Shown here: positions 11,411 to 42,699 of the stretch, one piece after another
Layout: each line of letters begins with the position of its first letter
Numbering within the stretch: the stretch's first letter is position 1
From: Rickettsiaceae bacterium
GTDB taxonomy: Bacteria; Pseudomonadota; Alphaproteobacteria; Rickettsiales; Rickettsiaceae
Length of the DNA: 64,000 bases
Assembly (NCBI GenBank): GCA_963676335.1
Contig: OY781057.1
Coordinates: 783,047 to 847,046, forward strand
Reading direction: 5' to 3'
The notes under the pieces: generated by a model
The model's input: the letters and a program-made list of their open reading frames with translations, nothing else
What the model was told of the DNA's origin: nothing
Database searches by the model: none
Program-made: the position numbers and the translations under genes

Positions 11411-12166
11411 TTATTTAATATAACAAATTGATTTATATGGATATAATACATGATTTTGACGATTTTTCCATATATATTCACGAATAACTATATAAGGATC
11501 TAAAGCAGTATTTGTAACATAATCAGTAAATTCTAATATTTTTTCTCTTGTAGAAATTACACGTACTACACTTATAGTACGTCTAGTTCTTTTATCAATG
11601 TTTAATTTTAATGGATTTAAATAAGTATTAAATGATATAACGTCTAACATATCTCTTGCATTTGTTGACCCTAAAATTGGCAATACAAGATAAGGTCCAG
11701 GAGGTACTCCATAATATGCTAATGTATCTCCAAAAGTTTGAAGCTTATAGTTAATACCAAATTTACTAGCAACATCATATATTCCTCCAATTCCTAAAGT
11801 CGCATTAATTATAAAATGCCAAAAACTATTTAAAGCCTCTCTCCCATTAAATTGAAAAACATTATTTACTACTGTTACTGGAGATTCTACGTTATTTACA
11901 AAGTTCCAAACTCTATCTTTTAAGTAATCATTTAATAAAAATTTATATACTTTTGCAGCAGGACGTAATGTTATAGTGTCTAAAAACCCATTAAATACAA
12001 ATATTTTTCTATTAATACCCTCTAACGGATCATATGGATCGTCACATATGTTTTTATTTTGATAAGGATACTCATCTCCTAGATCATAAGCTTTTATCTC
12101 ACAATTAAAAAATAATAAACAAATAAAACCACTTATTATTTTATTTCTTATTGATGAATATACCAT
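11411..12166 (-). CDS. mlaA: Lipoprotein MlaA/VacJ
   Basis: DPLEGINRKIFVFNGFLDTITLRPAAKVY is the VacJ signature. A lipobox-like LFFNC is present. Confidence 0.85.
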   Translation of the reverse strand: MVYSSIRNKIISGFICLLFFNCEIKAYDLGDEYPYQNKNICDDPYDPLEGINRKIFVFNGFLDTITLRPAAKVYKFLLNDYLKDRVWNFVNNVESPVTVVNNVFQFNGREALNSFWHFIINATLGIGGIYDVASKFGINYKLQTFGDTLAYYGVPPGPYLVLPILGSTNARDMLDVISFNTYLNPLKLNIDKRTRRTISVVRVISTREKILEFTDYVTNTALDPYIVIREYIWKNRQNHVLYPYKSICYIK

Positions 12167-13130
12167 ACATTATTCCTTTAATTTCAATACAAGTATATTT
12201 GGCTAAAGAAAAACCGCAACTTTTTAATTGTTGTTTTATTTCAGTCGCTTTATAAAAGAAATACATTTTATTATTACTAATATCCAAATTTTCATGAATA
12301 GGTAATACAACTGCGAAAATTCCATCAGAATATAATAAAGAAAATATTTTTGCAAAAGAATCAAGTAAATTTTTTTTGTAATATAAGGTATTGAAGCTTA
12401 TTATTAGATTATAGCATTCATTATCTTGTTCTAAATACTCTTCGATACTAACATTTAGTATGTTATCGTATAGGTTAGTATTTTTTAAAGTATGTAAATA
12501 ATTAATAATTTCTGAATTTTCTTCGATACCACATAAAAAATAACGTTTAAATATATGATTCTGCAGCTCTTCTCCTAAAAAACCCTCTTTACATCCTAAA
12601 TCAAGAATACGATAGTTGTTATCAATTGGAATTTCCTTAATTTCTTCTAAAATTAACTTTATAAATTGATATGGTAGAGAAATCTTACTTCGAAAAAAGT
12701 TATTTATATAATATGAGGCAATCAATGAAGTATATTGTTGTCGAATCTCCTTAGGAATAAATTGATAAACACGATAATTATTTAAATATTGAACTAATTC
12801 TTTAGAAGAATTAGTTAAATTGAAATAATTTACTGACTTGTTGTATTTATCATAAATCAAGTAGCACCATCCTAACCAATAATAACATTCTAATCTTATC
12901 GAAGGAAAAATTTTTGCTGTAATGTAAAACCGAATAATTGCATCAAAAATATTACCTTTCTTTAAATGAAAAATTCCTAATTCTAAATTAGTATGTTCTA
13001 AATTTTTAATTTTCAATTTTATACTTTTAAAAAAGTTAATAAAAGCAATGAATTTAACCATTACAACATTAGGAAAATCAACTATCTCCTTTATTACTTT
13101 TTTACTATTTGATACTAAAGTAGAAAACAT
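12141..13130 (-). CDS. Class I SAM-dependent methyltransferase with a TPR-like N-terminal region
   Basis: ILDLGCKEGFLG is motif I. The N-terminal helical repeats are YYWLGWCYLIYDKYNKSVNYF. Confidence 0.65.
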   Translation of the reverse strand: MFSTLVSNSKKVIKEIVDFPNVVMVKFIAFINFFKSIKLKIKNLEHTNLELGIFHLKKGNIFDAIIRFYITAKIFPSIRLECYYWLGWCYLIYDKYNKSVNYFNLTNSSKELVQYLNNYRVYQFIPKEIRQQYTSLIASYYINNFFRSKISLPYQFIKLILEEIKEIPIDNNYRILDLGCKEGFLGEELQNHIFKRYFLCGIEENSEIINYLHTLKNTNLYDNILNVSIEEYLEQDNECYNLIISFNTLYYKKNLLDSFAKIFSLLYSDGIFAVVLPIHENLDISNNKMYFFYKATEIKQQLKSCGFSLAKYTCIEIKGIMYGIFINKK

Positions 13131-13207
13131 AATTATTTAATTTGTATAAAAAATATAATAGATTATATACAAAATTCAAAAAGATGCCAAGTTGTAAGAA
13201 TTAATAT

Positions 13208-13638
13208 TTATCTGTATGTTGGTATTTTTAATTTTTCAGTAACACTAGGTGTATATGTAAAAATTTTTATGTCTCCATTAGGCTTTTTTATTTTTATAGC
13301 TACTTGATCCTCTATATCGTAAGAAAAAATTTGTTGTCCATTACGCAATCCAGCTTTATATGCAGTAGAATTAGGGACTACACCAATAATTTCTCCATCA
13401 ATCATTGTATTTTTTAAGTCAAAACCATAGTTGAACTTTTTTTCAAAAATATGTTTTGTATTTGCTCTCCAGCGTTTGTTCCCCAAATTTCATTAGGAAT
13501 CTCTAATAAACCTTGCGTATTAGGAAATTGCCCTCTAATTTTAAGCTTATCATTTTCATGTATTACCGTGTAACTAATCTCGGAAAAACAAACACTATTA
13601 GTAAGTAGTAATATTACAAATATAAATGCTTTAATCAC
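13208..13638 (-). pseudogene. Secreted PDZ-like small protein split by an apparent 1-nt frameshift. It is the third gene of the radical-SAM operon.
   Basis: ORF 13414-13638 has a signal peptide (M)IKAFIFVILLLTNSVCFSE. The overlapping ORF 13208-13486 has the PDZ-like GEIIGVVPNSTAYKAGLRNGQQI. The GTG start overlaps the radical-SAM TGA stop (GTGA). An A7 tract at about 13434-13440 lies in the overlap of the two frames. Confidence 0.6.
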
Positions 13639-14783
13639 GAAAAAAGCGCTGACTCAATTTTAGACAAAGAAACTCCGGAATTTAATAAGTAACTAGTAAG
13701 ATGAGAAAAAAGATCCTTTAGTCCCTCACAATAAACAGAAGGGTTATTAAATCTGTTTTCTTTGCTAAAACGATTTACTAATCCACCTCCACCACAAACT
13801 TTTCCCCAACAACATTTTTGACATTCTAAAGGTAAAACAGTCTGTGCTAATCTAAGTTCTTCAAAAATAGGATGTTTTAAAAAATCTTTTAGTGAAGTAT
13901 TGAAAATATTACAATTAGTTTTAGTTACCGTTTCTGGATCTGTTGACATTAACTCATCAGTAGGTTCTAAATCACCATTACTACGAATAGTAATTATTGG
14001 GAACAAACTTTCTTCATTCTCTTGATTTACTGCTCCAATTCCATAAATGAGCCTTTCTTCTCCAATTAATTGTCCTAAAAACGACCTTAATGTTCTAATG
14101 TTTATTTTAAGATCATCATCTTTAATCAATTCATAAAATACATCTACCAAAACTTTTGTATAATTTAATAAACTATTATTAGGCTTACGATCATGAGTAT
14201 AATCAGACAACAAAAGATCAAAATTATAAATTTTTAAATCATCAACAAAATGTCTATAAATCTTTTTTCCATCTGAACTAGAATTAATTACAGATAATGT
14301 ACCAAGTCTAGGTATATTATTTTCCTGTAAAAGATATATTTTTTTTACTAAATTATCATATGTACCTTTCCCATTTGGATATATGCGATTTTGATTATGT
14401 ATTTCTTTTGGACCATCGATACTTACACCAATATTAACGTTATACTTAATAAATAAATCTATCCATTCTTTATCTATCAATAAGCCATTAGTTTGCAAAT
14501 GAAATTGCAGAACAATATCATTAAAACCTTCTATAAGTGTGTCACATAGATAAGAAAAATTTTCTTTTCCAACAAGAAGTGTTTCCCCACCATGCAAAGA
14601 AACAACTAACTTCTTAATATTTAACTCATCTATCCCTTGCTTTAAAAAAGCATAAATTTTATTAATAGTAGATTTAGAAACATAAGGAGGATGGTCCTTA
14701 TGAGAAACATCCAATCCTTTAAAAAAATAACAATATCTACAACCTAAGATGCATCTTTCAGCAACTTTGATAATTACTTCCAT
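13635..14783 (-). CDS. Radical SAM / SPASM-domain peptide-modifying enzyme (AslB/anSME-like superfamily; no N-terminal RRE visible)
   Basis: CILGCRYCYF is a CxxxCxxC motif at residues 11-18. Other motifs are SLHGGETLL and VSIDGPKEIHNQNRIYPNGKGTYDNL. The C-terminal auxiliary-cluster Cys motif is CQKCCWGKVCGGGG...VYCEG. Confidence 0.85.
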   Translation of the reverse strand: MEVIIKVAERCILGCRYCYFFKGLDVSHKDHPPYVSKSTINKIYAFLKQGIDELNIKKLVVSLHGGETLLVGKENFSYLCDTLIEGFNDIVLQFHLQTNGLLIDKEWIDLFIKYNVNIGVSIDGPKEIHNQNRIYPNGKGTYDNLVKKIYLLQENNIPRLGTLSVINSSSDGKKIYRHFVDDLKIYNFDLLLSDYTHDRKPNNSLLNYTKVLVDVFYELIKDDDLKINIRTLRSFLGQLIGEERLIYGIGAVNQENEESLFPIITIRSNGDLEPTDELMSTDPETVTKTNCNIFNTSLKDFLKHPIFEELRLAQTVLPLECQKCCWGKVCGGGGLVNRFSKENRFNNPSVYCEGLKDLFSHLTSYLLNSGVSLSKIESALFS

Positions 14784-14792
14784 AAAACATCA

Positions 14793-15002
14793 TTAACTAC
14801 ATCTACTCCAACTAACTCTAGCATGACTACATTGAGGATAATAAGATTTTACTTCATCACCCTTTTTATGTGTCTCAACAATAACGTCTTGAGCAATTGC
14901 TTTATTTACCTTTTCTTCTTTAGGGTTTTTATCTAATTTTTTTATATCTATACCTTTAGTAAGCATTTGTGCGCGAAACTGATCAATTTTTGAAACATTC
15001 AT
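14793..15002 (-). CDS. Candidate RiPP precursor peptide (69 aa)
   Basis: It sits 9 nt upstream of the radical-SAM gene on the same strand. A Lys/Glu-rich leader-like N-terminus is followed by the C-terminal core SYYPQCSHARVSWSRCS, ending at the stop codon. Confidence 0.6.
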   Translation of the reverse strand: MNVSKIDQFRAQMLTKGIDIKKLDKNPKEEKVNKAIAQDVIVETHKKGDEVKSYYPQCSHARVSWSRCS

Positions 15003-15015
15003 AAAATACCTTTTT

Positions 15016-15062
15016 TTATGTTACATAATCAGATTATGTAACATAAAATTTCTATCTGTCAA
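15016..15062 (-). promoter_or_regulatory. Putative sigma70-type promoter with an overlapping perfect palindromic operator
   Basis: On the minus strand, TTGACA (15062-15057) is followed by a 16-18 nt spacer and then TACATAAT. The palindrome ttatgttacataat-cag-attatgtaacataa (15016-15046) has 14-bp perfect arms and lies 14 nt upstream of the peptide ATG. Confidence 0.5.
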
Positions 15063-15092
15063 TAATTTCAATTAATAAGAAAATAAAATTTT

Positions 15093-16493
15093 TTACCACC
15101 ATCCTAAATAATGCCACCAAAAAGCTCCTATTGTAGACCAAATTAGAATATTTACAAAACTTACGATAGCTCCGATTTTCCACCATTCTTGAATTGATAA
15201 GTATCCAGATTCGTAAAAAACGGGAGCAGAGCCTATACTAAAGTGAGTTAATCCACCAGATAATATAGAGAAATAAGCTAAACACATAGCTACTAGTATT
15301 TTTGGCACTCCTAATTTTATTAATAAAATAGCAAATGCTACATATAACACAGTTGCATGTGCAGTTGCGCTAGCAAATATGTAATGTATATAAAAGTAAA
15401 AAAGTGCTAATATTATTGCAGATAATAAAATATAATCTACCATTATAAAATTTTGAATTTTAGTTATTATCCATTGAATAATGCCGAATTTTATTAATTT
15501 TTCAGACATCATTACTAAAATTGAGAACCATATAAAACAATCCCAAGCACTTGTTTCCTGTAATGCATCTTTCCATGACAAGCCTCCGGTTAAAATAAGT
15601 ATAGACACACCTAATAAAGCTGTAGTTGTAGCATCTATTCCTATAGATTTACCTAAAGACCAAAAAACAATTAATACGATAAATACTCCTATCATTATTA
15701 TTTCTTGAAAAGAAATTTTCTCAAATTGTTTTGTTATTTGATTTGTAGCTGCATCATATATTTTTTCTACATGCGGAGGATAAAAAAAATAAACAACGAA
15801 TGGTAATACAATTAAACTAATTAATCCAGGAACTATAGCTCCAATTGCCCAAGTTCCCCATGCAATTTCTACTCCAATTTGTTTAGCAAGACTTGCCACT
15901 AAGGGATTAGTTGCTATTGCAGTTAAAAACATAGCACTGGTTATAACATTTGATTGAAAACAAACTTGAATTAAAAATCCTCCAATCCTATTTTTTAAAT
16001 TATTCTTTTCATATTCTTCTGATAATGATTTTGCTATAGGAAAAATAATTCCCCCTCCTCGCGCTGTAGCACTAGGCATCGCAGGAGCTAATAATAATTC
16101 TGTAAATATCAAACTATATGATAATCCAAATATATTACTTCCTATTTTAGATATGAGATAATAAGCACATCTTTTTCCTAACCCTGTTTTTATAAAACCT
16201 CTCGAAATAAAAAATGCAAAAACAACCAACCAAGAAATAGACGAACTAAAAGACGCCATAACTTGTTCAAGAGGTAATGTTTGGGTAATAATGCATATAA
16301 GAGCACTCAATAATGCAATAGCTCCCATAGGATATGGATTTACTATTATAGTTGCAATCATCATAATAAAAATTATAAAAAAATGCCAAGCTACAGGAGT
16401 TAATTCTTCAGGATGAGGAATAACCCATAATATAGAACCTATGAAAAATAAGAATATAAAGATTAAAAAATTTTTACTTTTTAAAAGACTCAT
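15093..16493 (-). CDS. DASS-family anion/dicarboxylate transporter (2-oxoglutarate/malate translocator-like)
   Basis: 466 aa and polytopic. The N-terminus PHPEELTPVAWHFFIIFIMMIATIIVNPYPMGAIALL is typical of SodiT/DASS anion permeases. Confidence 0.7.
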   Translation of the reverse strand: MSLLKSKNFLIFIFLFFIGSILWVIPHPEELTPVAWHFFIIFIMMIATIIVNPYPMGAIALLSALICIITQTLPLEQVMASFSSSISWLVVFAFFISRGFIKTGLGKRCAYYLISKIGSNIFGLSYSLIFTELLLAPAMPSATARGGGIIFPIAKSLSEEYEKNNLKNRIGGFLIQVCFQSNVITSAMFLTAIATNPLVASLAKQIGVEIAWGTWAIGAIVPGLISLIVLPFVVYFFYPPHVEKIYDAATNQITKQFEKISFQEIIMIGVFIVLIVFWSLGKSIGIDATTTALLGVSILILTGGLSWKDALQETSAWDCFIWFSILVMMSEKLIKFGIIQWIITKIQNFIMVDYILLSAIILALFYFYIHYIFASATAHATVLYVAFAILLIKLGVPKILVAMCLAYFSILSGGLTHFSIGSAPVFYESGYLSIQEWWKIGAIVSFVNILIWSTIGAFWWHYLGWW

Positions 16494-32866: not shown

Positions 32867-35131
32867 ATGGAGGAAAACATTATGAAACAATCACATTTAT
32901 TAAATATTTTGAAAAATAAAGATATTTCTACATTAATTCAAAATAAAAATTCAATTCCATCTAAAATGGTAAACATTATTTACCAACAAGCAGCGCAGTA
33001 TTTCAATATTTCAGAATTTGGAGAATTAACAGACTCATTTGATTTTAAATATAAAAATGATTTTTTACTTAAAGCTTTTGAATATGATAATATTCAATTA
33101 GCTGATTATATAAGAACAAAATATTGTGCTCTTATTCCCAATATTACTGTATTAAAAATAGCTATATCATCAAATAATATAAATGCAGTCAATCATGTTC
33201 TTAGTACGTATTCAATACAGAATGCGCTACAAAACGATACTGATGCTGCGCATATCTTATCAGAAGCAATAAAAACTGGTGTCTTAGATATTTATACACT
33301 CATAAGCAGTAATATTCCTGATGTAAACATTTTAATAAACAAAACTTCCGTTAAAGACGCTATTAAATACGCGGTACAGAATGGCGATATTCCTATAATT
33401 TCCAAACTAATAGAATATGAAAACGCTAAACAAAATATGAATTTAGTAGATGCTCTACATAATGAAAAATCAGAAATGGCAGAGTTTTTAATAGAAAAAA
33501 TAGATACTTTAGATTATACAATTACAGATCATAGAGGGTACTCTTTACTTCATTTAGCTTTAGAAAAAATTCAAAATTTATCTGATCGATACTATATTAT
33601 TAATCTCTTATTAAATGGAAACGCAAATGTTAATGCTATAGGTCCTAATGAGGATCCCGTAATTTACACTGCCGCTTTAATTGGAGATTATAATTGTTTT
33701 TCATTATTAAAAACCAAAGGAGCGTATTTTGATGTTAATAATGTCTTAACATCACCGATTCTTTACGCTGCAACTATAGGTCACAATCAACAAATTTTTT
33801 CAGAAGTAATAGCTACAGCAGATTTTTTAGACTATAAAACATTAAAAAATTTATTCAAAACTTTAAATACACAAAGAGATATTGAGTTTTTATCATCCCA
33901 AATACCTATAGTTCAAAACTATAATCTTAATAATATATTACCACTAACAAAATCAGAAATATATCAACCTGAAAAAAATATAAATCAAAAAAAACTTGTT
34001 CAACCTTCATTAAGCAGTTCCGATAATATAAGTGAAGAAAAAAATAATATTATAGACAATGTAAGTATAATGAAATCAGAAATATATCAACCTGACGAAA
34101 TTAACAATTGGAACGCTCTAATGATCCCTCAAAATATATCAAAAATATCATTTGTTAAAAAAAATAATGTTAAAAGTATTGTTACTTTAAAATCCTTCTC
34201 AGAGTTTAGTGAAGCCCCTATTCAAAGTTGGCTTGAAATAAAAAAACAGAATGAATCAGAAGAAGCTAAAAATGAAAATTCTTATATACTAAATCCTTTA
34301 AGTATTTCTTTAACTGAAAAAATAACCATTCCTCTTAATTTTAAGAAAACAAATATCTCAGAGATTAAAAATATAGAAAAAGATAATGATAGCTGGAATA
34401 TTTATACAGAAGAAGAAAAACAGAATGAATCAGAAGAAGCTAAAAATGAAAATTCTTATATACTAAATCCTTCAAGTATTTCTTCAACTGAAAAAATAAC
34501 CACTCCTCTTAAATTAAAAAAAATAAATAGCTTTGAAATTAAAAATATAGAACAAAATATTAAAACAGCTACTTTTTTAAAAATAGAAGACGGTATCCAA
34601 AATAATCAATCTAATGACTTAGATATTTTGGAAGATAATAAACAAAATATTAAAATGTTTACTTTGAATGCTATTCCTTCATTTTCTAGTCTATTTGAAA
34701 AATCAAAAAATGATAACCAAAGCAGCCTAGATAATAATGAAAACAATATAAAACAAAGCAATGCAGAGGAAGAAAAACAAAATGAACTAGAAAATTTTAG
34801 TATTGCTCAAATTAATAAAGCTTCTAACTCCTCAGAAATTCTCATAAAAAATAAAGAAATAGCAAATAATGAACAAAATATAGCCATTTTGAATAATGAT
34901 AATATAGAAAATGAAAAAGATATAAGTAATCAAGACAGTAGTTGGAATATTTTAAATAATAACACTAAACAAAATATTAAAACGTCTGCTTTAGTCCTTT
35001 CTTCATTTTCTAGTTTATTTCAAAACCCCAAAAATGATAACCAAGATATTGGTCAAAATAATTTAGATGATAATAGCTGGAATCTTTTAGAGAGTAGTAG
35101 CGTATCTATAATTGGAAATGTTGAACAATAG
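32867..35131 (+). CDS. Ankyrin-repeat protein with a repetitive Asn/Ser/Glu-rich C-terminal half (effector-like)
   Basis: ANK-like units include GYSLLHLALEK...LLLNGNANVNA and PVIYTAALIGDYNCFSLLKTKGAYFDV. The C-terminal half contains internal repeats (see the repeat feature). Confidence 0.8.
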   Translation: MEENIMKQSHLLNILKNKDISTLIQNKNSIPSKMVNIIYQQAAQYFNISEFGELTDSFDFKYKNDFLLKAFEYDNIQLADYIRTKYCALIPNITVLKIAISSNNINAVNHVLSTYSIQNALQNDTDAAHILSEAIKTGVLDIYTLISSNIPDVNILINKTSVKDAIKYAVQNGDIPIISKLIEYENAKQNMNLVDALHNEKSEMAEFLIEKIDTLDYTITDHRGYSLLHLALEKIQNLSDRYYIINLLLNGNANVNAIGPNEDPVIYTAALIGDYNCFSLLKTKGAYFDVNNVLTSPILYAATIGHNQQIFSEVIATADFLDYKTLKNLFKTLNTQRDIEFLSSQIPIVQNYNLNNILPLTKSEIYQPEKNINQKKLVQPSLSSSDNISEEKNNIIDNVSIMKSEIYQPDEINNWNALMIPQNISKISFVKKNNVKSIVTLKSFSEFSEAPIQSWLEIKKQNESEEAKNENSYILNPLSISLTEKITIPLNFKKTNISEIKNIEKDNDSWNIYTEEEKQNESEEAKNENSYILNPSSISSTEKITTPLKLKKINSFEIKNIEQNIKTATFLKIEDGIQNNQSNDLDILEDNKQNIKMFTLNAIPSFSSLFEKSKNDNQSSLDNNENNIKQSNAEEEKQNELENFSIAQINKASNSSEILIKNKEIANNEQNIAILNNDNIENEKDISNQDSSWNILNNNTKQNIKTSALVLSSFSSLFQNPKNDNQDIGQNNLDDNSWNLLESSSVSIIGNVEQ
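34244..34591 (+). repeat. Tandem 174-bp (58-aa) duplication inside the ankyrin gene
   Basis: KQNESEEAKNENSYILNPLSISLTEKITIPLNFKKTNISEIKNIEKD is followed by KQNESEEAKNENSYILNPSSISSTEKITTPLKLKKINSFEIKNIEQN. The first ~90 nt of each unit are nearly identical. Confidence 0.85.
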
Positions 35132-35988: not shown

Positions 35989-38900
35989 CTATTTTAAATT
36001 TACTCTAACACTTAGAGCCCCTTGATATCCTACAAACTTTTGTCTTAGGACAACATCTACTTTAGCACCAATATTATACATACCATCATTAACTACTGTA
36101 TTTATACCACCACCAACATTAAAAGAAGCTTTGGATGGTTTAATAGCAGTTTTAGCGACATCAATATTATACGCACTAACTTTAGCTGTAATTTTACTAC
36201 CTTTAGCAGTAAAATCATAGTTTAAGTAAGCATGTGCTTCTGGATTAAATTGAGTATCCCCACTATTGATTGTTCCAACTACACTTGTTCCCAAGATACC
36301 AACTACTGAATTTAAAGCTTTATCAGTAATAGTACCAGCTTGACCTTTAATTGAATTATCTGTAGCAGTTTCAGTATAGCCACCTTTAGTAAATCTAGAA
36401 TAAGAAATACCACCTTTAGGAATAATAGATACAGAGTCATTAATAGCATATCTATATTCTAATAACCCTTGTACCCCATACATTGAAGTATCGTATTTAC
36501 CAGTTAAAGTACTGGATGAGAATTGGGTTCCAAGTAAACTGACTACATTACGCTTAGCAGTTACTTTACTATTACCAAAACCTAATACACCTTGAATAGA
36601 AAGATCATTTCCTAAATCATAGCTACCATATGCAGAGAACATATAAGTTTTTGCATCTGTTTTATTTCCAATTGCGGAATCTCTATGTTTAATTTTGGTA
36701 CTTGCATATGTGACAGCACCACCAATTACAGTAGAATCATTAACCTGCGCATCCGCACCGATTGTAAATCCGACAAGGTTGTTTTTATACCCTGAAAAGT
36801 TTTTACGCATTTTTTGCTTACTTGCTCCACCAAACGCAGTTCCCCAAACACCAAATGGAACATTTTCCCCTTCACCAGAAGACACACCTATTGGCATAGG
36901 TGCAACAGCATTAAGCCTACTGCCAAGCGTAGAAAATATATTACTCGTTAAATCCTGAGCAGCATTATCAACGGCTCTAGCTTCCGTAACTGGATCTGCA
37001 CTTGATTTTTCTATAATATTTTCTAGCAGGTCAACTCTACCTGATTCAACCATTTTTGTTATCAAATTTCTTTCTTCTACTGAAATACATTCGTTATATC
37101 CCTGTACTATATCATTAATACCATTTACAAATTTTTTAACATCTTGTTTATTAAGAGAATCACCAGCATTATCTGCTAACTTCATTATTTCATTTGTTAT
37201 TTTTAATTCTTCAGCATCAGGTATTGTTGCACCTGGAACTGTACCTGGTGTTGCGCTTATAGTTATTTTAGCAGTCAACTTACCATTTTCATCTAATGTA
37301 TATGAAAGAAGTTTACCACCTATTTCATCAGGATAAGCATCTTCAGCAGATCTAACAGCTTTAGAGAAATCAATACCTTTACCAGAAACTACTGTAAAGG
37401 ATTGTCCATTTACAGGCATTTTTCCTTCGTTTCTTTCAACTAAGACTGAAACATCTGTTACACCTGAAACATCACCATCCGTTATAACAACATTACCCAT
37501 ATTGTCACCATCGTAACTAGTATAAATCTCTAATTCACCAGTTAAAGTACCTTTACTTATTGTTAATGTTTTTGTAGACAGACCCAATTGAACATCTGCA
37601 CCGGTGGTAGTACCAGCTAAGGTAACATTATTCGATAACAAAAAGCTATTCCCTTTTCCTAAATCGATTACATTAGAATAAATTTCTTCACCAAGAATAT
37701 AATTCTTATTAGTATTAAGTTTTAAAGAATTCATTGGAGCAGCTGAAGTACCTAATTTACCAATATAAAAATCTTTTTCAACTGTAATATCTCCTTTGCC
37801 ACTAGCGCTTAATAAAGCTCCTACATCTTTAAAAACCACTTTTCCAGTATCTGCAACATTTAATTCTTTAACAAAGGTCAACCCACTAAAAGTTGTAGTT
37901 TCGCTACCTGTAAGATTTATTTTTTTTGCAATAGCATAACCAACTTCATTATTTTTTCCTTTTAATATAGCTTCACCTACGGAATAACAATCTGCTAAAA
38001 GACCAGCGCTATCAAAGGTCTGTTGATCTGGATAATATTGGAAGCTTTCTATTGATTCCAACATTTCTTTCATATAATCTACTTCTACCACAGAACTATC
38101 TCCTAAACCAACAATTGCATTATCTCCAATTCTATCATTATCTCCTTCAAAAGTAACTTTTGTATTGATACCAGTTAAGCCAGCGTATACGTTTATTCCA
38201 TCATTAACTTCAATATTAGCATTTTTTCCACTAAATTTAAAATATCCTAATGGCTTATCTTTAGATCCAAAATTACTAGTAAAGGCATACTTAACATCAT
38301 CTTGAGTAATCTCTACACCACCTATTCCAGCAGTTTCTGTTGTAAATGTAAATAATGCTTTAGATCCAATTACGTCATCTACTGAATTAAGTTTTATGCT
38401 ACCACTCTCTGTTCCTTTAAAATTAATACCTTTTACATTCTTAGCATTGACTAATACAAGATTAGCTCCAGCAATATTTACTATCCCATCATGAACTATT
38501 TCCTCAACTTTAACATCTGCATTATTATCTCCTTTTACAAAATTAACTATAGAATCTTTATTAACAGTAATTTTTTTAAATACACCTCCTCCAAAAGCAC
38601 CTATAGATTTTGCTTCTATAGTAATTGGAGCTATCGCTCCCCCAATTATTGTTGAGGTTTTTCCGTCTCCTTTTAAACGTATATTACTCCATGCAAAACT
38701 AGATTTGATACCACCAACAATTTTACTATTTTCCATATTTAAAGTGTTATTTGCAGCATTAGAATCAATACCCTCTGTTGTATATATACTACTTCCATCC
38801 ATATTTAAGGTTGTAGAGTTTTTGCTTAAAATAACTTTTTTAATAGGAGTACCATCTGCACCAATACTAGTTCCAGATAAGGTAACGATACCACCGCCAT

Positions 38901-41900
38901 CTATTGACACAGCACCTTTTCCTTTAGAGTTTTTTGTGGTGAATTTATAGCTACCTTTAGTTTTAGCTAAACTTAAACTTAGATCATTATCCCCAAAATC
39001 AATAAGATTTACATATACATTCCCACTAAAGGTTAATGTATTTGCTTTATCCATCAAAATTTGTTTTAACATTTTAGTTTCTTCTCCAACAGTATCCATA
39101 AATTTAACCGCTTCAGAAGAAGTAAATTTTAATGATCCTGTCTTATCTGTAACAACCTCAACCTTTCTTATAATAGGGTTTGCATCACTTACTGCTAAGA
39201 TACCATCTTGCATGAAGGATATTTTATTTGCTCCAATTTGTGTAGCAGCAAATGTATCTGTAGTATCAATTTTTATCTGACTTAATCTATTATCATTAGC
39301 ATTGTCGCCATCTACACCAAGTTTTTGAGATACCCCTCCAGCAGAAATTTTTACTATACCTTTTCCTTTACTACCTAAAATATCTGTATTCAAAGCTGGA
39401 ACTTTACCATCTTTTCCTTTAGCTAAATTTAAACTTAGCTCTGTATCTTTACCACCACTTCCAATAACTATATTTTCACTAATATAAACATTATTAGTTA
39501 GCGTTGCACTATCTCCGGTAAATTTAAGTTGTTTAAATCTTGCATTCTCTGTACCAACATTAGCAATTGAAGCATTTCCAACTTGAAGCGTACCTACTCC
39601 ATTATTTGTAGTTGTATATTTTACATCTGAATTAGTCATTCCATCTCCAATGATAAGAGTTGTGTCGGTTGCGTTATCTAAATTAATTTCTTTAACATAA
39701 ACTTTCCCATTAACGCCCCCCCCATTAGTAAAGACAATTTTATTTACCCTTACTGTATCATTATTACCAATTACGGTGGTAATTTTCGCATCTTGTTTTG
39801 TAAATTTCAAAATACCATCTCCATCATTATCAACTGAAACATTTGTTTTTAATTCTCCCCCAATTGTTAACTCACCTCCATTCCCTAATTTGACAGCATT
39901 TATATTAGTTCCTGCATTTCCTATATCACCAGTAACGATCCATTTACTACCTACTTTCAATGTACCATTATTACCACCAGTACTAATAATTTGACCATTA
40001 ACTGTATGAGAATTTTCTGTATCATTTAATTCGATAGTTGCAGCGTTATTATTAAAATCGATATCTCCAAAAATATCACGCCCTAAGGTATAAGTTCCAG
40101 TGCTTCCAGCTTTAACATTAACAAGACTACCTGCTGCGCCGATTGTAGATAATATAGATGCAGTGTCGCCAGCGTTAGCGCCTAAAGTTAAGGTGCCACC
40201 ATTTCCAGTTATAGGCACACCAGTAATTGTACTTCCATTCGCTACTGTAACGTTGTTTGCAGCAATTTCAATTCCTTGTAAATTTGCAATAGCTCCACCA
40301 ATGTTTCCTGCTGCATTAAAAATCACTTTACCATAAGCACCATCGCTTGTTACTGCCGCAACATCAAATTTTCCGACAGTTATTGTTGTGCCAACAGCAT
40401 TTGCCTTAATTTTAAATTCTTTAGCATGTAATTCCCCAACAGTGATAGTTGCTGCATTATCATTTGAAACAACGAATTCATTAGTATGTACTTTAGCGAA
40501 TTTATGATCCCCAGCAGCAGCAGATAATTTTTTAACTTCCACTTTTTTAACATTTGCTCCTACAACTCCGATATCATTTACAAAAGTAACGTTTTTGCCA
40601 TTAGTTATAGATTCTACAGTTCCGAACCCAGGATTGTTATTCGTGATTGCTCCAATAAATGTTATAGCAGCAGCAGTAGCATTTACTTGCAATGTTGCAT
40701 CGTTAGCAAATACAAGCCCGCCAGCAAGAGTAGTATCTCCACTTATAACAGCAGTAGCGGTGTCGTTAATTGTAAACGCAGCACCACCATTATTAGAATC
40801 AGCTTTTATTTTTTGAAAATTTACTATACCATCTCCACTAACTAAGATGTTGTTAATACTATTCGTATTTCCAATTTCTGCATTGATATTGACACCATTG
40901 CCATCAGCAGTTTTGATAGATAGAATTCCTTGCTTAGCAGCAACACTACCATCTATTTTAGCAGCTGTGAAATTAATCGCTCCATTAGTTGCGTCGAGGG
41001 TCAATGTTTTAGTGTCAAGGATTGCTACACTACCAGCACCAGCATCGAACGTATATCCACCAATTATTGTGGTATTAGCATTAACATTAAATGCTTTTGT
41101 ATATATGTTTCCAGTTAAGGTAACGTTTTTAGCGCCTTGTGTTGTTAATTCTGCAAGACGAGCAGCATTAGTAGCTCCCAACAAACCTGTGTAATTAATA
41201 TCGCCATTTGCTGCATTAAATATAGCAATACCCTTATCACCACCGGCAGCAACAAGCCCAGTGTTTGCCGCTCCATCACCAGCGGTAATTGTTGTTCCAG
41301 CAGCAACAGCATTAAACGTTATTTTAGAACCAGCGTTTGTTAAATTTGCTTTTGTTATATTAACAGTTTGAGCAGTAATCTGTAATTCGTGTGCAACAGC
41401 ATTGCTAAATTCTACTGTTGTAACATCTACCAATCCAGTAATGTTTAATTTAGCAACATTATTATTTGCATCACTTAAGAAAACTTTACTTGCATAGACG
41501 TCTCCTGTAATTGTATGTTGGTTATTACCAGCAGAATCTACTTCAATGGTACCGAATCTTTTATTTACGCCGTTATCACCGATATTTCCTTTAAAAGTAA
41601 CATTATTAGCATTATTCCCTGCAAAATAAAGGAGACCTGTGTTATCAGTTGTTGTCGTTATATTTGCAGCAACCGTTTTCGCACCACCATTAGCATCAAT
41701 CGTCAATTTATGATTTTGTCTACCAAATTCAATAGTATTCACGTTAACGTTACCTACTTTAACCTGTGCTACATTAGTGTCCTTTGTTAATTGTATTTTA
41801 TCAATCCGATTCGCACTACCAATATCCCCATCTATTATAATATCTTGCGCACCAGCGGCAGTTCCTTTAAATACTAAAATGCCATTACCAGCAACACTAC

Positions 41901-42699
41901 CATCAATCGCTCCAGTATACGTACCATTAGCACCACCAGCAACCAATGTTAACTTCGCCCCGGCGCCTAACGTAGCATTAGCTTTTGTTGCTGCATTAAT
42001 CAATGTTCTTGTTGTATCTGAATTATCTTCTAAGGTTAATTTTATTGCATTATTTGCACCAATCGCACCAGCGCCTAGACCCAATTTACCGTTTACAATT
42101 ACCTCTACAGCATTAACAGCATTAGCAACATCAATAGTACCTGCAAAGTCACCTAGATCAGTGCCTGCTGCGCCCCCTAGATATAACTTTTGCCCTGCAT
42201 TTCTACCATCAAATATAATAGCCCCCAAATGCGAAACACCAGCATCACCACCATTAATTCCGTGGCCAGCAGTACCTAATAATTTGAAAACGTTATTATC
42301 TTGATTCTCGAAAGTTAAGCTTATTACCTCTGCAGCGACTGCTTTAATATACGTATGAGAAACAGTAACCCCTCCAGCATTTCCTAAAGCAATTATTTTA
42401 GCACCGTTGTTATCTAAGTCTAGGTATCCTAAATCAACAGTTAGGTCATACGTTAAATTCATCCCATTGGAAAGTTTAATCGTATCATCTTTCTGGACTA
42501 CCCCTGCTGCTGCTCCTCCTATTATTTGAAGATTTGCTCCATCACTTAATTTTCCCGCTCCCCCATTTGTTACTTCTAAATTACGCCCCCAAGCTGTTCC
42601 GCTATTAGCTATCATACCTATAGCTGAAGCTGCGCTTAGCAAGCCAATTATAAATTTTTTATTTCGTATTTTTGGTTTTTCGTTCATAGAATTCTCCAT
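35989..42699 (-). CDS. Giant autotransporter (type Va) surface protein, Sca/rOmp-like
   Basis: 2236 aa with an extended signal peptide ...IGLLSAASAIGMIANSGTAWG. The long Gly/Asn/Thr/Ala/Ile-rich passenger is followed by a C-terminal ~280-aa beta-barrel (FGVWGTAFGGASKQK...GYQGALSVRVNLK). Confidence 0.9.
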   Translation of the reverse strand: MENSMNEKPKIRNKKFIIGLLSAASAIGMIANSGTAWGRNLEVTNGGAGKLSDGANLQIIGGAAAGVVQKDDTIKLSNGMNLTYDLTVDLGYLDLDNNGAKIIALGNAGGVTVSHTYIKAVAAEVISLTFENQDNNVFKLLGTAGHGINGGDAGVSHLGAIIFDGRNAGQKLYLGGAAGTDLGDFAGTIDVANAVNAVEVIVNGKLGLGAGAIGANNAIKLTLEDNSDTTRTLINAATKANATLGAGAKLTLVAGGANGTYTGAIDGSVAGNGILVFKGTAAGAQDIIIDGDIGSANRIDKIQLTKDTNVAQVKVGNVNVNTIEFGRQNHKLTIDANGGAKTVAANITTTTDNTGLLYFAGNNANNVTFKGNIGDNGVNKRFGTIEVDSAGNNQHTITGDVYASKVFLSDANNNVAKLNITGLVDVTTVEFSNAVAHELQITAQTVNITKANLTNAGSKITFNAVAAGTTITAGDGAANTGLVAAGGDKGIAIFNAANGDINYTGLLGATNAARLAELTTQGAKNVTLTGNIYTKAFNVNANTTIIGGYTFDAGAGSVAILDTKTLTLDATNGAINFTAAKIDGSVAAKQGILSIKTADGNGVNINAEIGNTNSINNILVSGDGIVNFQKIKADSNNGGAAFTINDTATAVISGDTTLAGGLVFANDATLQVNATAAAITFIGAITNNNPGFGTVESITNGKNVTFVNDIGVVGANVKKVEVKKLSAAAGDHKFAKVHTNEFVVSNDNAATITVGELHAKEFKIKANAVGTTITVGKFDVAAVTSDGAYGKVIFNAAGNIGGAIANLQGIEIAANNVTVANGSTITGVPITGNGGTLTLGANAGDTASILSTIGAAGSLVNVKAGSTGTYTLGRDIFGDIDFNNNAATIELNDTENSHTVNGQIISTGGNNGTLKVGSKWIVTGDIGNAGTNINAVKLGNGGELTIGGELKTNVSVDNDGDGILKFTKQDAKITTVIGNNDTVRVNKIVFTNGGGVNGKVYVKEINLDNATDTTLIIGDGMTNSDVKYTTTNNGVGTLQVGNASIANVGTENARFKQLKFTGDSATLTNNVYISENIVIGSGGKDTELSLNLAKGKDGKVPALNTDILGSKGKGIVKISAGGVSQKLGVDGDNANDNRLSQIKIDTTDTFAATQIGANKISFMQDGILAVSDANPIIRKVEVVTDKTGSLKFTSSEAVKFMDTVGEETKMLKQILMDKANTLTFSGNVYVNLIDFGDNDLSLSLAKTKGSYKFTTKNSKGKGAVSIDGGGIVTLSGTSIGADGTPIKKVILSKNSTTLNMDGSSIYTTEGIDSNAANNTLNMENSKIVGGIKSSFAWSNIRLKGDGKTSTIIGGAIAPITIEAKSIGAFGGGVFKKITVNKDSIVNFVKGDNNADVKVEEIVHDGIVNIAGANLVLVNAKNVKGINFKGTESGSIKLNSVDDVIGSKALFTFTTETAGIGGVEITQDDVKYAFTSNFGSKDKPLGYFKFSGKNANIEVNDGINVYAGLTGINTKVTFEGDNDRIGDNAIVGLGDSSVVEVDYMKEMLESIESFQYYPDQQTFDSAGLLADCYSVGEAILKGKNNEVGYAIAKKINLTGSETTTFSGLTFVKELNVADTGKVVFKDVGALLSASGKGDITVEKDFYIGKLGTSAAPMNSLKLNTNKNYILGEEIYSNVIDLGKGNSFLLSNNVTLAGTTTGADVQLGLSTKTLTISKGTLTGELEIYTSYDGDNMGNVVITDGDVSGVTDVSVLVERNEGKMPVNGQSFTVVSGKGIDFSKAVRSAEDAYPDEIGGKLLSYTLDENGKLTAKITISATPGTVPGATIPDAEELKITNEIMKLADNAGDSLNKQDVKKFVNGINDIVQGYNECISVEERNLITKMVESGRVDLLENIIEKSSADPVTEARAVDNAAQDLTSNIFSTLGSRLNAVAPMPIGVSSGEGENVPFGVWGTAFGGASKQKMRKNFSGYKNNLVGFTIGADAQVNDSTVIGGAVTYASTKIKHRDSAIGNKTDAKTYMFSAYGSYDLGNDLSIQGVLGFGNSKVTAKRNVVSLLGTQFSSSTLTGKYDTSMYGVQGLLEYRYAINDSVSIIPKGGISYSRFTKGGYTETATDNSIKGQAGTITDKALNSVVGILGTSVVGTINSGDTQFNPEAHAYLNYDFTAKGSKITAKVSAYNIDVAKTAIKPSKASFNVGGGINTVVNDGMYNIGAKVDVVLRQKFVGYQGALSVRVNLK

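Follow-up and report, generated by a model that had tools for sequence, protein, structure and literature searches.

A radical SAM enzyme and its precursor peptide in a Rickettsiaceae bacterium probably form the core of a triceptide-type pathway

The window analysed here, a stretch of 64,000 nucleotides (nt) from a Rickettsiaceae bacterium (NCBI GenBank assembly GCA_963676335.1, contig OY781057.1, positions 783,047 to 847,046 of the forward strand), harbours on its minus strand (13208-15062) a gene for a 69-amino acid (aa) peptide followed by a gene for a 382-aa radical S-adenosylmethionine (SAM) enzyme. The two genes probably represent the two-gene core of a triceptide-type pathway for a ribosomally synthesised, post-translationally modified peptide (RiPP), which is related to XyeA/XyeB but belongs to a distinct, uncharacterised subfamily. 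The enzyme is a predicted member of the triceptide synthase class, judging from its cysteine motifs, the lack of a RiPP recognition element (RRE), its relatives in sequence and fold and the adjacent triad-bearing precursor. The subfamily is distinguished by its own precursor family, a pair of cysteines in the core and an M61-type partner peptidase with a PDZ domain. An earlier note on this DNA, made from the letters alone, had described a three-gene operon; peptide and enzyme are intact as described there, but the third 'gene' consists of two open reading frames (ORFs) in different frames. The two intact genes comprise the following features:

14793..15002, minus strand: precursor peptide gene, 69 aa; ORF with a leader of about residues 1-53 (14844-15002)
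14796..14843, minus strand: predicted core Y54-S69, within the precursor gene
14832-14840, minus strand: triad Y55-P56-Q57
14829-14831, minus strand: Cys58, candidate disulfide partner
14817-14825, minus strand: triad H60-A61-R62
14802-14810, minus strand: triad W65-S66-R67
14799-14801, minus strand: Cys68, candidate disulfide partner
13635..14783, minus strand: radical SAM cyclophane-synthase-like enzyme, 382 aa; ORF with NCBIfam and fold matches

The peptide ORF ends in ...YYPQCSHARVSWSRCS* on the minus strand. As already noted earlier and seen in the ORF coordinates, the enzyme ORF begins 9 nt past the TAA of the peptide gene, and the TGA of the enzyme gene is overlapped by a GTG (GTGA) at 13638. 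The enzyme carries the sequence C11-x3-C15-x2-C18, i.e., the CxxxCxxC motif previously read at residues 11-18 (14730-14753). Because this motif begins at residue 11, no N-terminal RRE domain is possible, which agrees with the statement that the enzyme has no RRE/PqqD-like extension. The C-terminal block reads C321QKCCWGKVC330GGGG ... Y-C352-EG and contains the auxiliary-cluster cysteine set C321/C324/C330/C352 (13728-13823). The arrangement C321-x2-C324-x5-C330-x21-C352 was invariant in an alignment of 44 homologues, and its spacing (CX2CX5CX21C) is that of the auxiliary-cluster-II ligands of the sulfatase maturase anSME. Overall, the enzyme keeps all 25 invariant columns of the 44-sequence alignment. 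In an alignment to 4k36, the auxiliary-cluster-I cysteines of anSME had no counterpart in the enzyme or in ChlB. The C-terminus had been called SPASM-like in the earlier note; the cysteine block is indeed present, but only a single four-cysteine set is conserved and the Pfam SPASM model did not match the enzyme, Radical_SAM being the only domain found by Pfam.

Among the hidden Markov models (HMMs) of NCBIfam, the highest scores were obtained with XyeB (279.6 bits; TIGR04496, curated cut-off 450 bits), YhhB (256.1 bits; NF041707, cut-off 445) and FxsB (213.7 bits; TIGR04269, cut-off 370). Lower scores were obtained with anSME (160.3 bits; TIGR03942, cut-off 349.45), DynA (123.5 bits; NF041298, cut-off 450) and GrrM (117.9 bits; GrrM/OscB TIGR04261, cut-off 310), and further weak scores with the ranthipeptide maturase PapB (93.6 bits), DarE (76.1 bits; NF038005, cut-off 650) and the SCIFF maturase (62 bits). 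In this search, which had been suggested earlier, XyeB, YhhB and FxsB hence rank above the sulfatase maturase, all of them below cut-off. An AlphaFold2 model of the enzyme (predicted local distance difference test score, pLDDT, 95.2) matched best the fold of ChlB in its leader complex, with a template modelling (TM) score of 0.89-0.91 and a root-mean-square deviation of 1.9 Å, and more weakly those of anSME (TM 0.81) and the sactisynthase CteB (TM 0.71). ChlB was the top PDB match by sequence as well as by fold, at a sequence identity of 24%.

The nearest relative found among 5.8 billion proteins is 64% identical to the enzyme. Some 80 unnamed metagenomic proteins, including one from a Rickettsiaceae metagenome-assembled genome (MAG) at 43%, share 40-50% identity, followed by a protein of the Wolbachia symbiont of Folsomia candida (39%) and the named XyeB proteins of Yersinia and Photorhabdus (about 35%). 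Relatives found in a scan of Joint Genome Institute (JGI) metagenomes were at most about 35% identical, except for partial-length matches at the loci L091 (48%) and L100 (39%). In a neighbour-joining (NJ) tree, which carries no support values, the enzyme and its 64% relative fall inside a large clade apart from that of true XyeB, and this clade holds sequences from Rickettsiaceae, Wolbachia, Coxiellaceae, Francisellaceae, Berkiella and Rhabdochlamydia. Published similarity networks hold roughly 3,900-5,400 cyclophane synthases (PMC11499958), and some enzymes of the subfamily may already be unstudied nodes therein.

The leader of the 69-aa peptide displays two motifs, QF..ML.KGID and NK.I..D.I. 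With the peptide encoded upstream of the closest radical SAM homologue (locus L001) it shares 45% identity over 67 residues (E 8e-9), most of it in the leader (MNVSKIDQFRAQMLTKGID in the window, MDSKINQFHTQMLTKGID in L001), and the cores differ. Aligned with nine other upstream peptides, the window peptide shares a common leader, in which a QF/MF helix is followed by an NK-I-x-x-(D/E)-I-L motif, while the C-terminal core is variable. A small ORF lies directly 5' of the radical SAM gene in all loci read (L001, L004, L165, here twice, L166, L167 and L169-L172); conservation beside orthologous enzymes, on which the earlier note had made its proposal depend, was thus found at every locus examined. 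When 1.84 billion representative proteins were searched with a profile, 36 members of the precursor family came up, none of them named. As an independent set, 27 family members were used that had played no part in framing the triad hypothesis.

The last 15 residues of the window peptide contain three aromatic-x-(Q/R) triads versus 0.55 expected by shuffling (p ~0.002). Within the last 25 residues of the ten aligned peptides, 34 triads of the type [F/Y/W/H]-x-[K/R/N/Q] were counted versus 11.6 expected (each core shuffled, 5000 shuffles, maximum 22). The independent set gave 111 triads versus 31.3 expected (2000 shuffles, maximum 47), a 3.5-fold enrichment in the core, at a density of 4.1 per core versus 0.70 per 28 residues in the leaders. 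The consensus of the family core is roughly Y-x-(K/R/Q)-(x)-C-(H/F)-x-(K/R/N)-x-(H/F)-x-(K/R)-x-G-G-x-G-(F/W/Y)-x-(K/R/N)-S-(Y/H)-x-K-x-C, of which the window core, YPQ-C-S-HAR-V-S-WSR-C-S, is a shortened version. YP[K/Q]C also occurs in four of the 27 independent members, so that the proline-containing YPQ triad is typical of the family. In the earlier note, a threefold pentad had been emphasised; its YPQ, HAR and WSR triads are above chance and enriched throughout the family, but the serine at position +4 is peculiar to the window peptide and was not seen in relatives. The idea that YPQ, HAR and WSR are Omega-x-X sites is further backed by the HMM ranking, the ChlB fold and the co-occurrence of peptide and enzyme. 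Exactly two core cysteines are present in 25 of the 27 independent members, one after the first triad and one after the last. An even number of cysteines (2 or 4) would be in line with disulfides, and Cys58 and Cys68 of the window peptide probably form such a pair.

The crosslinking steps proposed here are modelled on the chemistry of triceptide synthases (PMC11499958; bioRxiv 10.1101/2024.12.16.628070). The enzyme would bind the precursor via the conserved leader (QF..ML.KGID ... NK.I..D.I) without an RRE, as do ChlB and XyeB. Upon reductive cleavage of SAM, the 5'-deoxyadenosyl radical would take the C-beta hydrogen from Gln57, Arg62 and Arg67, and the carbon radicals would attack the rings of Tyr55, His60 (at C2) and Trp65, resulting in three 3-residue cyclophanes and a mass change of -2 Da per ring, -6 Da in total. 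Precedents for such rings are WSK and FAR in xenorceptide A2 (bioRxiv 10.1101/2024.12.16.628070) as well as HNR (YhhB), HTK (HtkB) and YDR (ChlB) (PMC11499958). A Cys58-Cys68 disulfide would then probably enclose both the HAR and the WSR ring. Leader trimming in the ancestral module is presumably the task of a secreted M61-PDZ zinc peptidase encoded directly downstream.

Asp194 of the enzyme, located in an LLxxD motif, may be involved in the choice of the third triad residue (X3). In 22 enzyme-precursor pairs (the window and 21 homologous loci), this position is Asp in nearly all enzymes whose precursor has K, R, N or Q at X3, Tyr when X3 is Asp (L170), Leu when X3 is likewise Leu (L010), and His or Phe in combination with mixed His-rich cores. 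A residue determining X3 specificity has been published as D214 in HtkB and H204 in HaaB (PMC11499958). The Asp194 pattern echoes this report and would fit it if the residues are equivalent in position; like HtkB, the window enzyme has an Asp at the putative specificity position alongside basic X3 residues.

The third gene had been described as encoding a secreted PDZ-like protein. What was found instead is a 74-aa ORF with a signal-peptide-like start and a 92-aa ORF in the -1 frame with a weak PDZ_6 match (E 9e-4), which together are the relics of a larger gene:

13414..13638, minus strand: M61-type peptidase relic, N-terminal piece, 74-aa ORF with GTG start, recognised by homology to full-length peptidases
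13437..13443, minus strand: A7 run where the two sides of the deletion meet, visible in the sequence itself
13208..13435, minus strand: M61-type peptidase relic, C-terminal PDZ piece; formal ORF 13208..13486 (92 aa), -1 frame

A full-length version of this gene is present in L004, L165 (twice), L166, L167, L169 and L171, where it encodes 520-550 aa and overlaps or abuts the stop codon of the radical SAM gene; the L167 copy comes from the Rickettsiaceae MAG GCA_045106955.1. The full-length homologues display a signal peptide, an M61 N-domain, an HExxH...E gluzincin domain with the zinc site AHExLHxWF...WFxEGFTDYY, and a C-terminal PDZ domain. Peptidase_M1 and M61 exceed the Pfam cut-offs in these proteins, and the peptidase profile matches PDB 7xyo, 'Aminopeptidase M61', at 5e-18. 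The N-terminal relic holds the signal peptide and the beginning of the M61 N-domain; tblastn aligned it with residues 20-74 of the L166 peptidase (E 3e-5), and it also corresponds to residues 23-72 of that of L004. The C-terminal relic matches residues 472-545 of the L004 peptidase (E 5e-6). By tblastn, the two remnants are placed at 13596-13441 and 13435-13211, respectively. In an alignment with the full-length peptidases, the relics cover columns 1-82 and 499-584 only, i.e., the first ~70 and the last ~75 of ~540 residues survive and ~400, including HExxH, are missing. No intact M61 catalytic domain was detected by tblastn elsewhere in the 64-kb window. The A7 run sits at the junction of the relics, whose homology ends at 13441 and 13435. 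One extra A in the mRNA at this run would fuse the relics to a 143-aa product of signal peptide, stub and PDZ domain, and we infer that transcriptional or ribosomal slippage might rescue the frame in this way. With or without such a fusion, protease activity is lost. The leader would therefore have to be cut by another protease or stay uncut, if a product is made.

AplP-type M1 peptidases (class III lanthipeptides) and the M61 endopeptidase MfuP act as leader peptidases of other RiPP classes. More generally, processing of RiPPs by M1/M61 peptidases has been described (PMC10885120). The gene downstream of the enzyme in the relatives resembles these proteases in encoding a secreted gluzincin with an M61 N-domain, HExxH and, in addition, a PDZ domain, whereas the window's own peptidase gene is devoid of the catalytic domain. 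Searches of the literature turned up no cyclophane synthase, and no cyclophane or radical SAM RiPP, with an M61 peptidase as its partner.

The closest named counterpart is the xenorceptide (XYE) system of Xenorhabdus, Yersinia and Erwinia (XyeA, TIGR04495; XyeB, TIGR04496), whose XyeB is the best curated match of the enzyme at ~35% identity. In both systems the enzyme lacks an RRE and the precursor gene is located directly upstream of the enzyme gene. Xenorceptide A2 (WVN-A-FAR-WSK-SF) and the window core (YPQ-CS-HAR-VS-WSR-CS) each have three C-terminal triads and end in W-S-(K/R) plus two residues. However, the enzyme scores 279.6 bits against a cut-off of 450, it belongs to the separate NJ clade, and the peptide fails the XyeA model and has no Gly-Gly leader end before the core. 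In addition, the aspartic protease C, the HlyD protein D and the C39-ABC exporter E of the XYE system, whose A-B-C-D-E architecture is seen at L015, are missing from the locus, the ancestral partner here being the M61-type peptidase. The cores of the window family also differ in their conserved cysteine pair and in that Tyr, His and Phe are far commoner than Trp. The second group of close counterparts comprises YhhB (HNR), HtkB (HTK), HaaB (HAA) and ChlB (YDR), of which YhhB gave the second-best HMM score (256 bits) and ChlB is the best solved structure. The HAR triad of the window resembles HNR and HTK, in which His C2 is linked to the C-beta of Arg or Lys. Unlike these systems, the window has a different precursor family and gene neighbourhood; its enzyme stays below the family cut-offs and lacks a fused alpha-ketoglutarate HExxH domain.

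Upstream of the peptide gene, two candidate regulatory elements were identified:

15033..15062, minus strand: sigma-70-like promoter TTGACA-18 nt-CATAAT, 11/12 consensus positions
15014..15048: perfect 17+17 nt palindrome, candidate operator, arms TTTTATGTTACATAATC A GATTATGTAACATAAAA

The promoter-like sequence (15062 to 15033) ties with a site at 13162-13190 as the best in the region 12900-15300; as the total number of such sites in this region is not above shuffle expectation, it is to be read as a consensus match only. The 35-bp palindrome (17-nt arms, 100% complementary, 1 nt between them) overlaps the -10 hexamer as well as the probable start of transcription. The window contains it only once, with no copy expected by chance, and it was not found upstream of the closest homologue L001. 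A role as transcript hairpin was rejected, the transcribed part folding no better than shuffles (z = 0.33). An operator at the DNA level is therefore more likely, and the palindrome is a candidate binding site for a dimeric regulator.

Relatives of the system occur in Wolbachia, Rickettsiaceae, Coxiellaceae, Francisellaceae, Berkiella and Rhabdochlamydia. The earlier note had regarded a RiPP pathway in a reduced Rickettsiales-like genome as unusual; the family recurs across intracellular lineages and is no one-off oddity. Among one-genome-per-species representatives, the most similar enzymes are those of Francisellaceae, Coxiellaceae, Rhabdochlamydia (three loci) and Berkiella; a truncated Wolbachia copy appears lower in the same list, and free-living taxa such as Nitrospirillum come after the first group. 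Several modules are located on plasmid-like or mobile contigs. On L165, two complete modules, each with precursor, radical SAM enzyme and M61 peptidase, are accompanied by a Rep3 replicase and two PemK toxin pairs. L170 carries RepA, three HU genes and a precursor with His-x-Asp triads, and L001 carries an integrase, MobA and a Tn3 transposase. In Wolbachia of Folsomia candida (wFol; L172, 4344-6158), two tandem precursors with a QF..LLKGID leader and HTN/HCS/HSR/HVN cores followed by a 30-aa C-terminal extension precede the radical SAM gene. These genes are located between nusA-infB and gltX, and the identical enzyme is found on at least 24 contigs. As wFol keeps two precursors and the enzyme without a peptidase, the latter is dispensable in some lineages. 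No cyclophane or radical SAM RiPPs of Rickettsiales or Wolbachia were found in the literature.

XyeA-like precursors were observed separately in Rhabdochlamydia MAGs and Wolbachia wPaga (L007, 803-1012; L018, 71-196; L029, 3761-3967). Their cores, with the ends ...VDWGKSF, ...DAWSAFAQAVWSKAF and ...ITWSKAF, are closely similar to xenorceptide A2 (WVNAFARWSKSF) and to the end of darobactin (WSKSF), and the WSKAF or WGKSF core ends of these Rhabdochlamydia and Wolbachia relatives nearly match the end by which xenorceptide A2 and darobactin bind BamA. A tandem retropepsin-like protease is encoded downstream at the Rhabdochlamydia loci, which parallels the XYE system. Reports of BamA-inhibitor-like peptides from Chlamydiae or Wolbachia do not seem to exist.

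Several observations weigh against a functional triceptide-type pathway or its placement as a subfamily. For none of the named cyclophane-synthase families does the enzyme reach the curated cut-off, and the split of its clade from true XyeB comes from the NJ tree without support values. The peptide matched neither XyeA (E<=1), whose TIGR04495 model gives 89.9 bits with a true XyeA from Xenorhabdus, nor any curated precursor family, and a characterised precedent for Pro at the second triad position, as in YPQ, was not found. The link to HtkB D214 and HaaB H204 depends on the equivalence of positions noted above. The partner peptidase is destroyed in the window and absent altogether at L001, and no exporter is encoded next to the locus. 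In Wolbachia wPaga (L029, 4001-5400), the radical SAM homologue breaks off after about residue 283, and several stop codons come next; the C-terminal Fe-S domain is lost, and the gene is probably a pseudogene. Together, peptidase loss and the truncated wPaga enzyme could mean that the locus is on its way to loss.

Taken further, the module would be a decaying relic, horizontally acquired and being lost, with ORFs still open but no mature product. This explanation would account for a peptidase gene that is frameshifted and short of ~400 codons, for a closest relative without peptidase among integrase, MobA and Tn3 genes, for the truncated wPaga enzyme, for the reduced genome, seen as an 860-kb contig with a guanine plus cytosine (GC) content of 0.29 in the window, and for the missing exporter. 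We nevertheless consider it rather unlikely, as the peptide and radical SAM ORFs are both full length, the enzyme retains all invariant family residues, and a near-consensus promoter and a perfect palindrome precede the peptide gene. The leader is conserved to ~55% with L001 (estimated by eye) while the core has diverged, as is characteristic of a functioning RiPP precursor, and wFol has kept two precursors and the enzyme without a peptidase, with the same sequence on at least 24 contigs.

The remaining explanations concern the chemistry. Thioether bridges of the sactionine or ranthionine type from Cys58 and Cys68, in place of or beside cyclophanes, had been proposed as an alternative earlier and are disfavoured by the present results. 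The conservation of two cysteines in 25 of 27 family cores and the weak likeness to PapB (93.6 bits) and the SCIFF maturase (62 bits) would be in line with such bridges; however, both scores are far below the models' own cut-offs and the XyeB, YhhB and FxsB scores, there is no RRE domain, and the fold is closer to ChlB (TM 0.9) than to CteB (0.71). Furthermore, the L166 core is free of cysteine yet keeps aromatic-x-K/R triads, and the even cysteine counts fit disulfides, which makes thioethers very unlikely. A maturase of the darobactin/dynobactin type, forming larger ether or C-C rings at the W-S-R end, appears extremely unlikely: the core end S-W-S-R-C-S resembles the W-S-K-S-F of darobactin, and DynA and DarE gave 123.5 and 76 bits, but these scores are far below the respective cut-offs (450 and 650) and well below that of XyeB, the second Trp two residues upstream that the darobactin ether ring requires is missing, and the pattern of the family is strictly i to i+2. 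That the enzyme might be an anaerobic sulfatase maturase with a sulfatase elsewhere, the small ORF being fortuitous, has a practically negligible probability. It shares with anSME the overall fold, the radical SAM core and the auxiliary-cluster-II motif, and anSME is its second-best structural match with an HMM score of 160 bits. Still, this score does not reach the cut-off of 349 and is surpassed by those of three cyclophane-synthase models, the auxiliary-cluster-I cysteines are missing, and the enzyme has a dedicated peptide partner, a small ORF with a conserved leader upstream of the orthologues as well. A search confined to the gene neighbourhoods found no sulfatase, neither beside the enzyme gene of the window nor beside any of its homologues. 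The enzyme thus does not fall among the sulfatase maturases, which the earlier note had named as an outcome that would speak against its proposal.

The genes flanking the locus are housekeeping genes (mlaA, mlaC, a DASS transporter gene, mutS and clpP), and no compositional island was detected at the operon. No second copy of the precursor was found in the 64 kb, nor did any RNA family of Rfam reach threshold there. A downstream methyltransferase-like gene (329 aa, SAM-dependent, 12141-13130) was rejected as a member of the cluster, because it has its own promoter-like site (13190 to 13162, 11/12), overlaps mlaA and has no counterpart at homologous loci. MnmA of the window is 51-54% identical to proteins of Rickettsiaceae, Orientia, Rickettsia and Trichorickettsia. 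Taken together with the 860,423-bp length of the contig and the symbiont-like genes listed below, this makes the bacterium a divergent member of the Rickettsiales whose genome is reduced. Further features of the window are typical of Rickettsiales-like symbionts:

22729-23979: IS605 TnpB-like gene
32867-35131: ankyrin-repeat protein
35989-42699: autotransporter of 2236 aa
54207-55562: PleD-like GGDEF response regulator

Interest in triceptides and the related xenorceptides, darobactins and dynobactins is currently driven by their use as Gram-negative-selective antibiotics targeting BamA, and mining for them has been conducted mainly in free-living or entomopathogenic bacteria. One would not expect specialised peptide chemistry in genomes of 0.9 Mb. 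As the predicted chemistry is that of known triceptides, the present finding is an extension and provides no new principle. It adds an uncharacterised enzyme branch with ~36 unannotated precursor clusters, four to five predicted rings plus a conserved cysteine pair, and an M61-PDZ partner, which is concentrated in intracellular symbionts and pathogens and is often located on plasmid-like contigs. A much bolder reading, to which we give only a small chance of being right, is that of a mobile, plasmid-borne family of disulfide-bracketed multi-cyclophane peptides exchanged among intracellular bacteria, both obligate and facultative (seen in Rickettsiales, Legionellales-like lineages, Francisellaceae and Chlamydiae), and perhaps acting, like the related xenorceptides, darobactins and dynobactins, as rigid beta-strand mimics directed against Omp85/BamA-type insertases. 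Competing bacteria within a shared host cell might then be the targets, or conceivably Sam50, the homologue in host organelles. The branch would also offer new scaffolds for the engineering of cyclophane peptides, and the retention of the peptide chemistry while the protease decays may provide a handle on what such peptides do inside the host cell.

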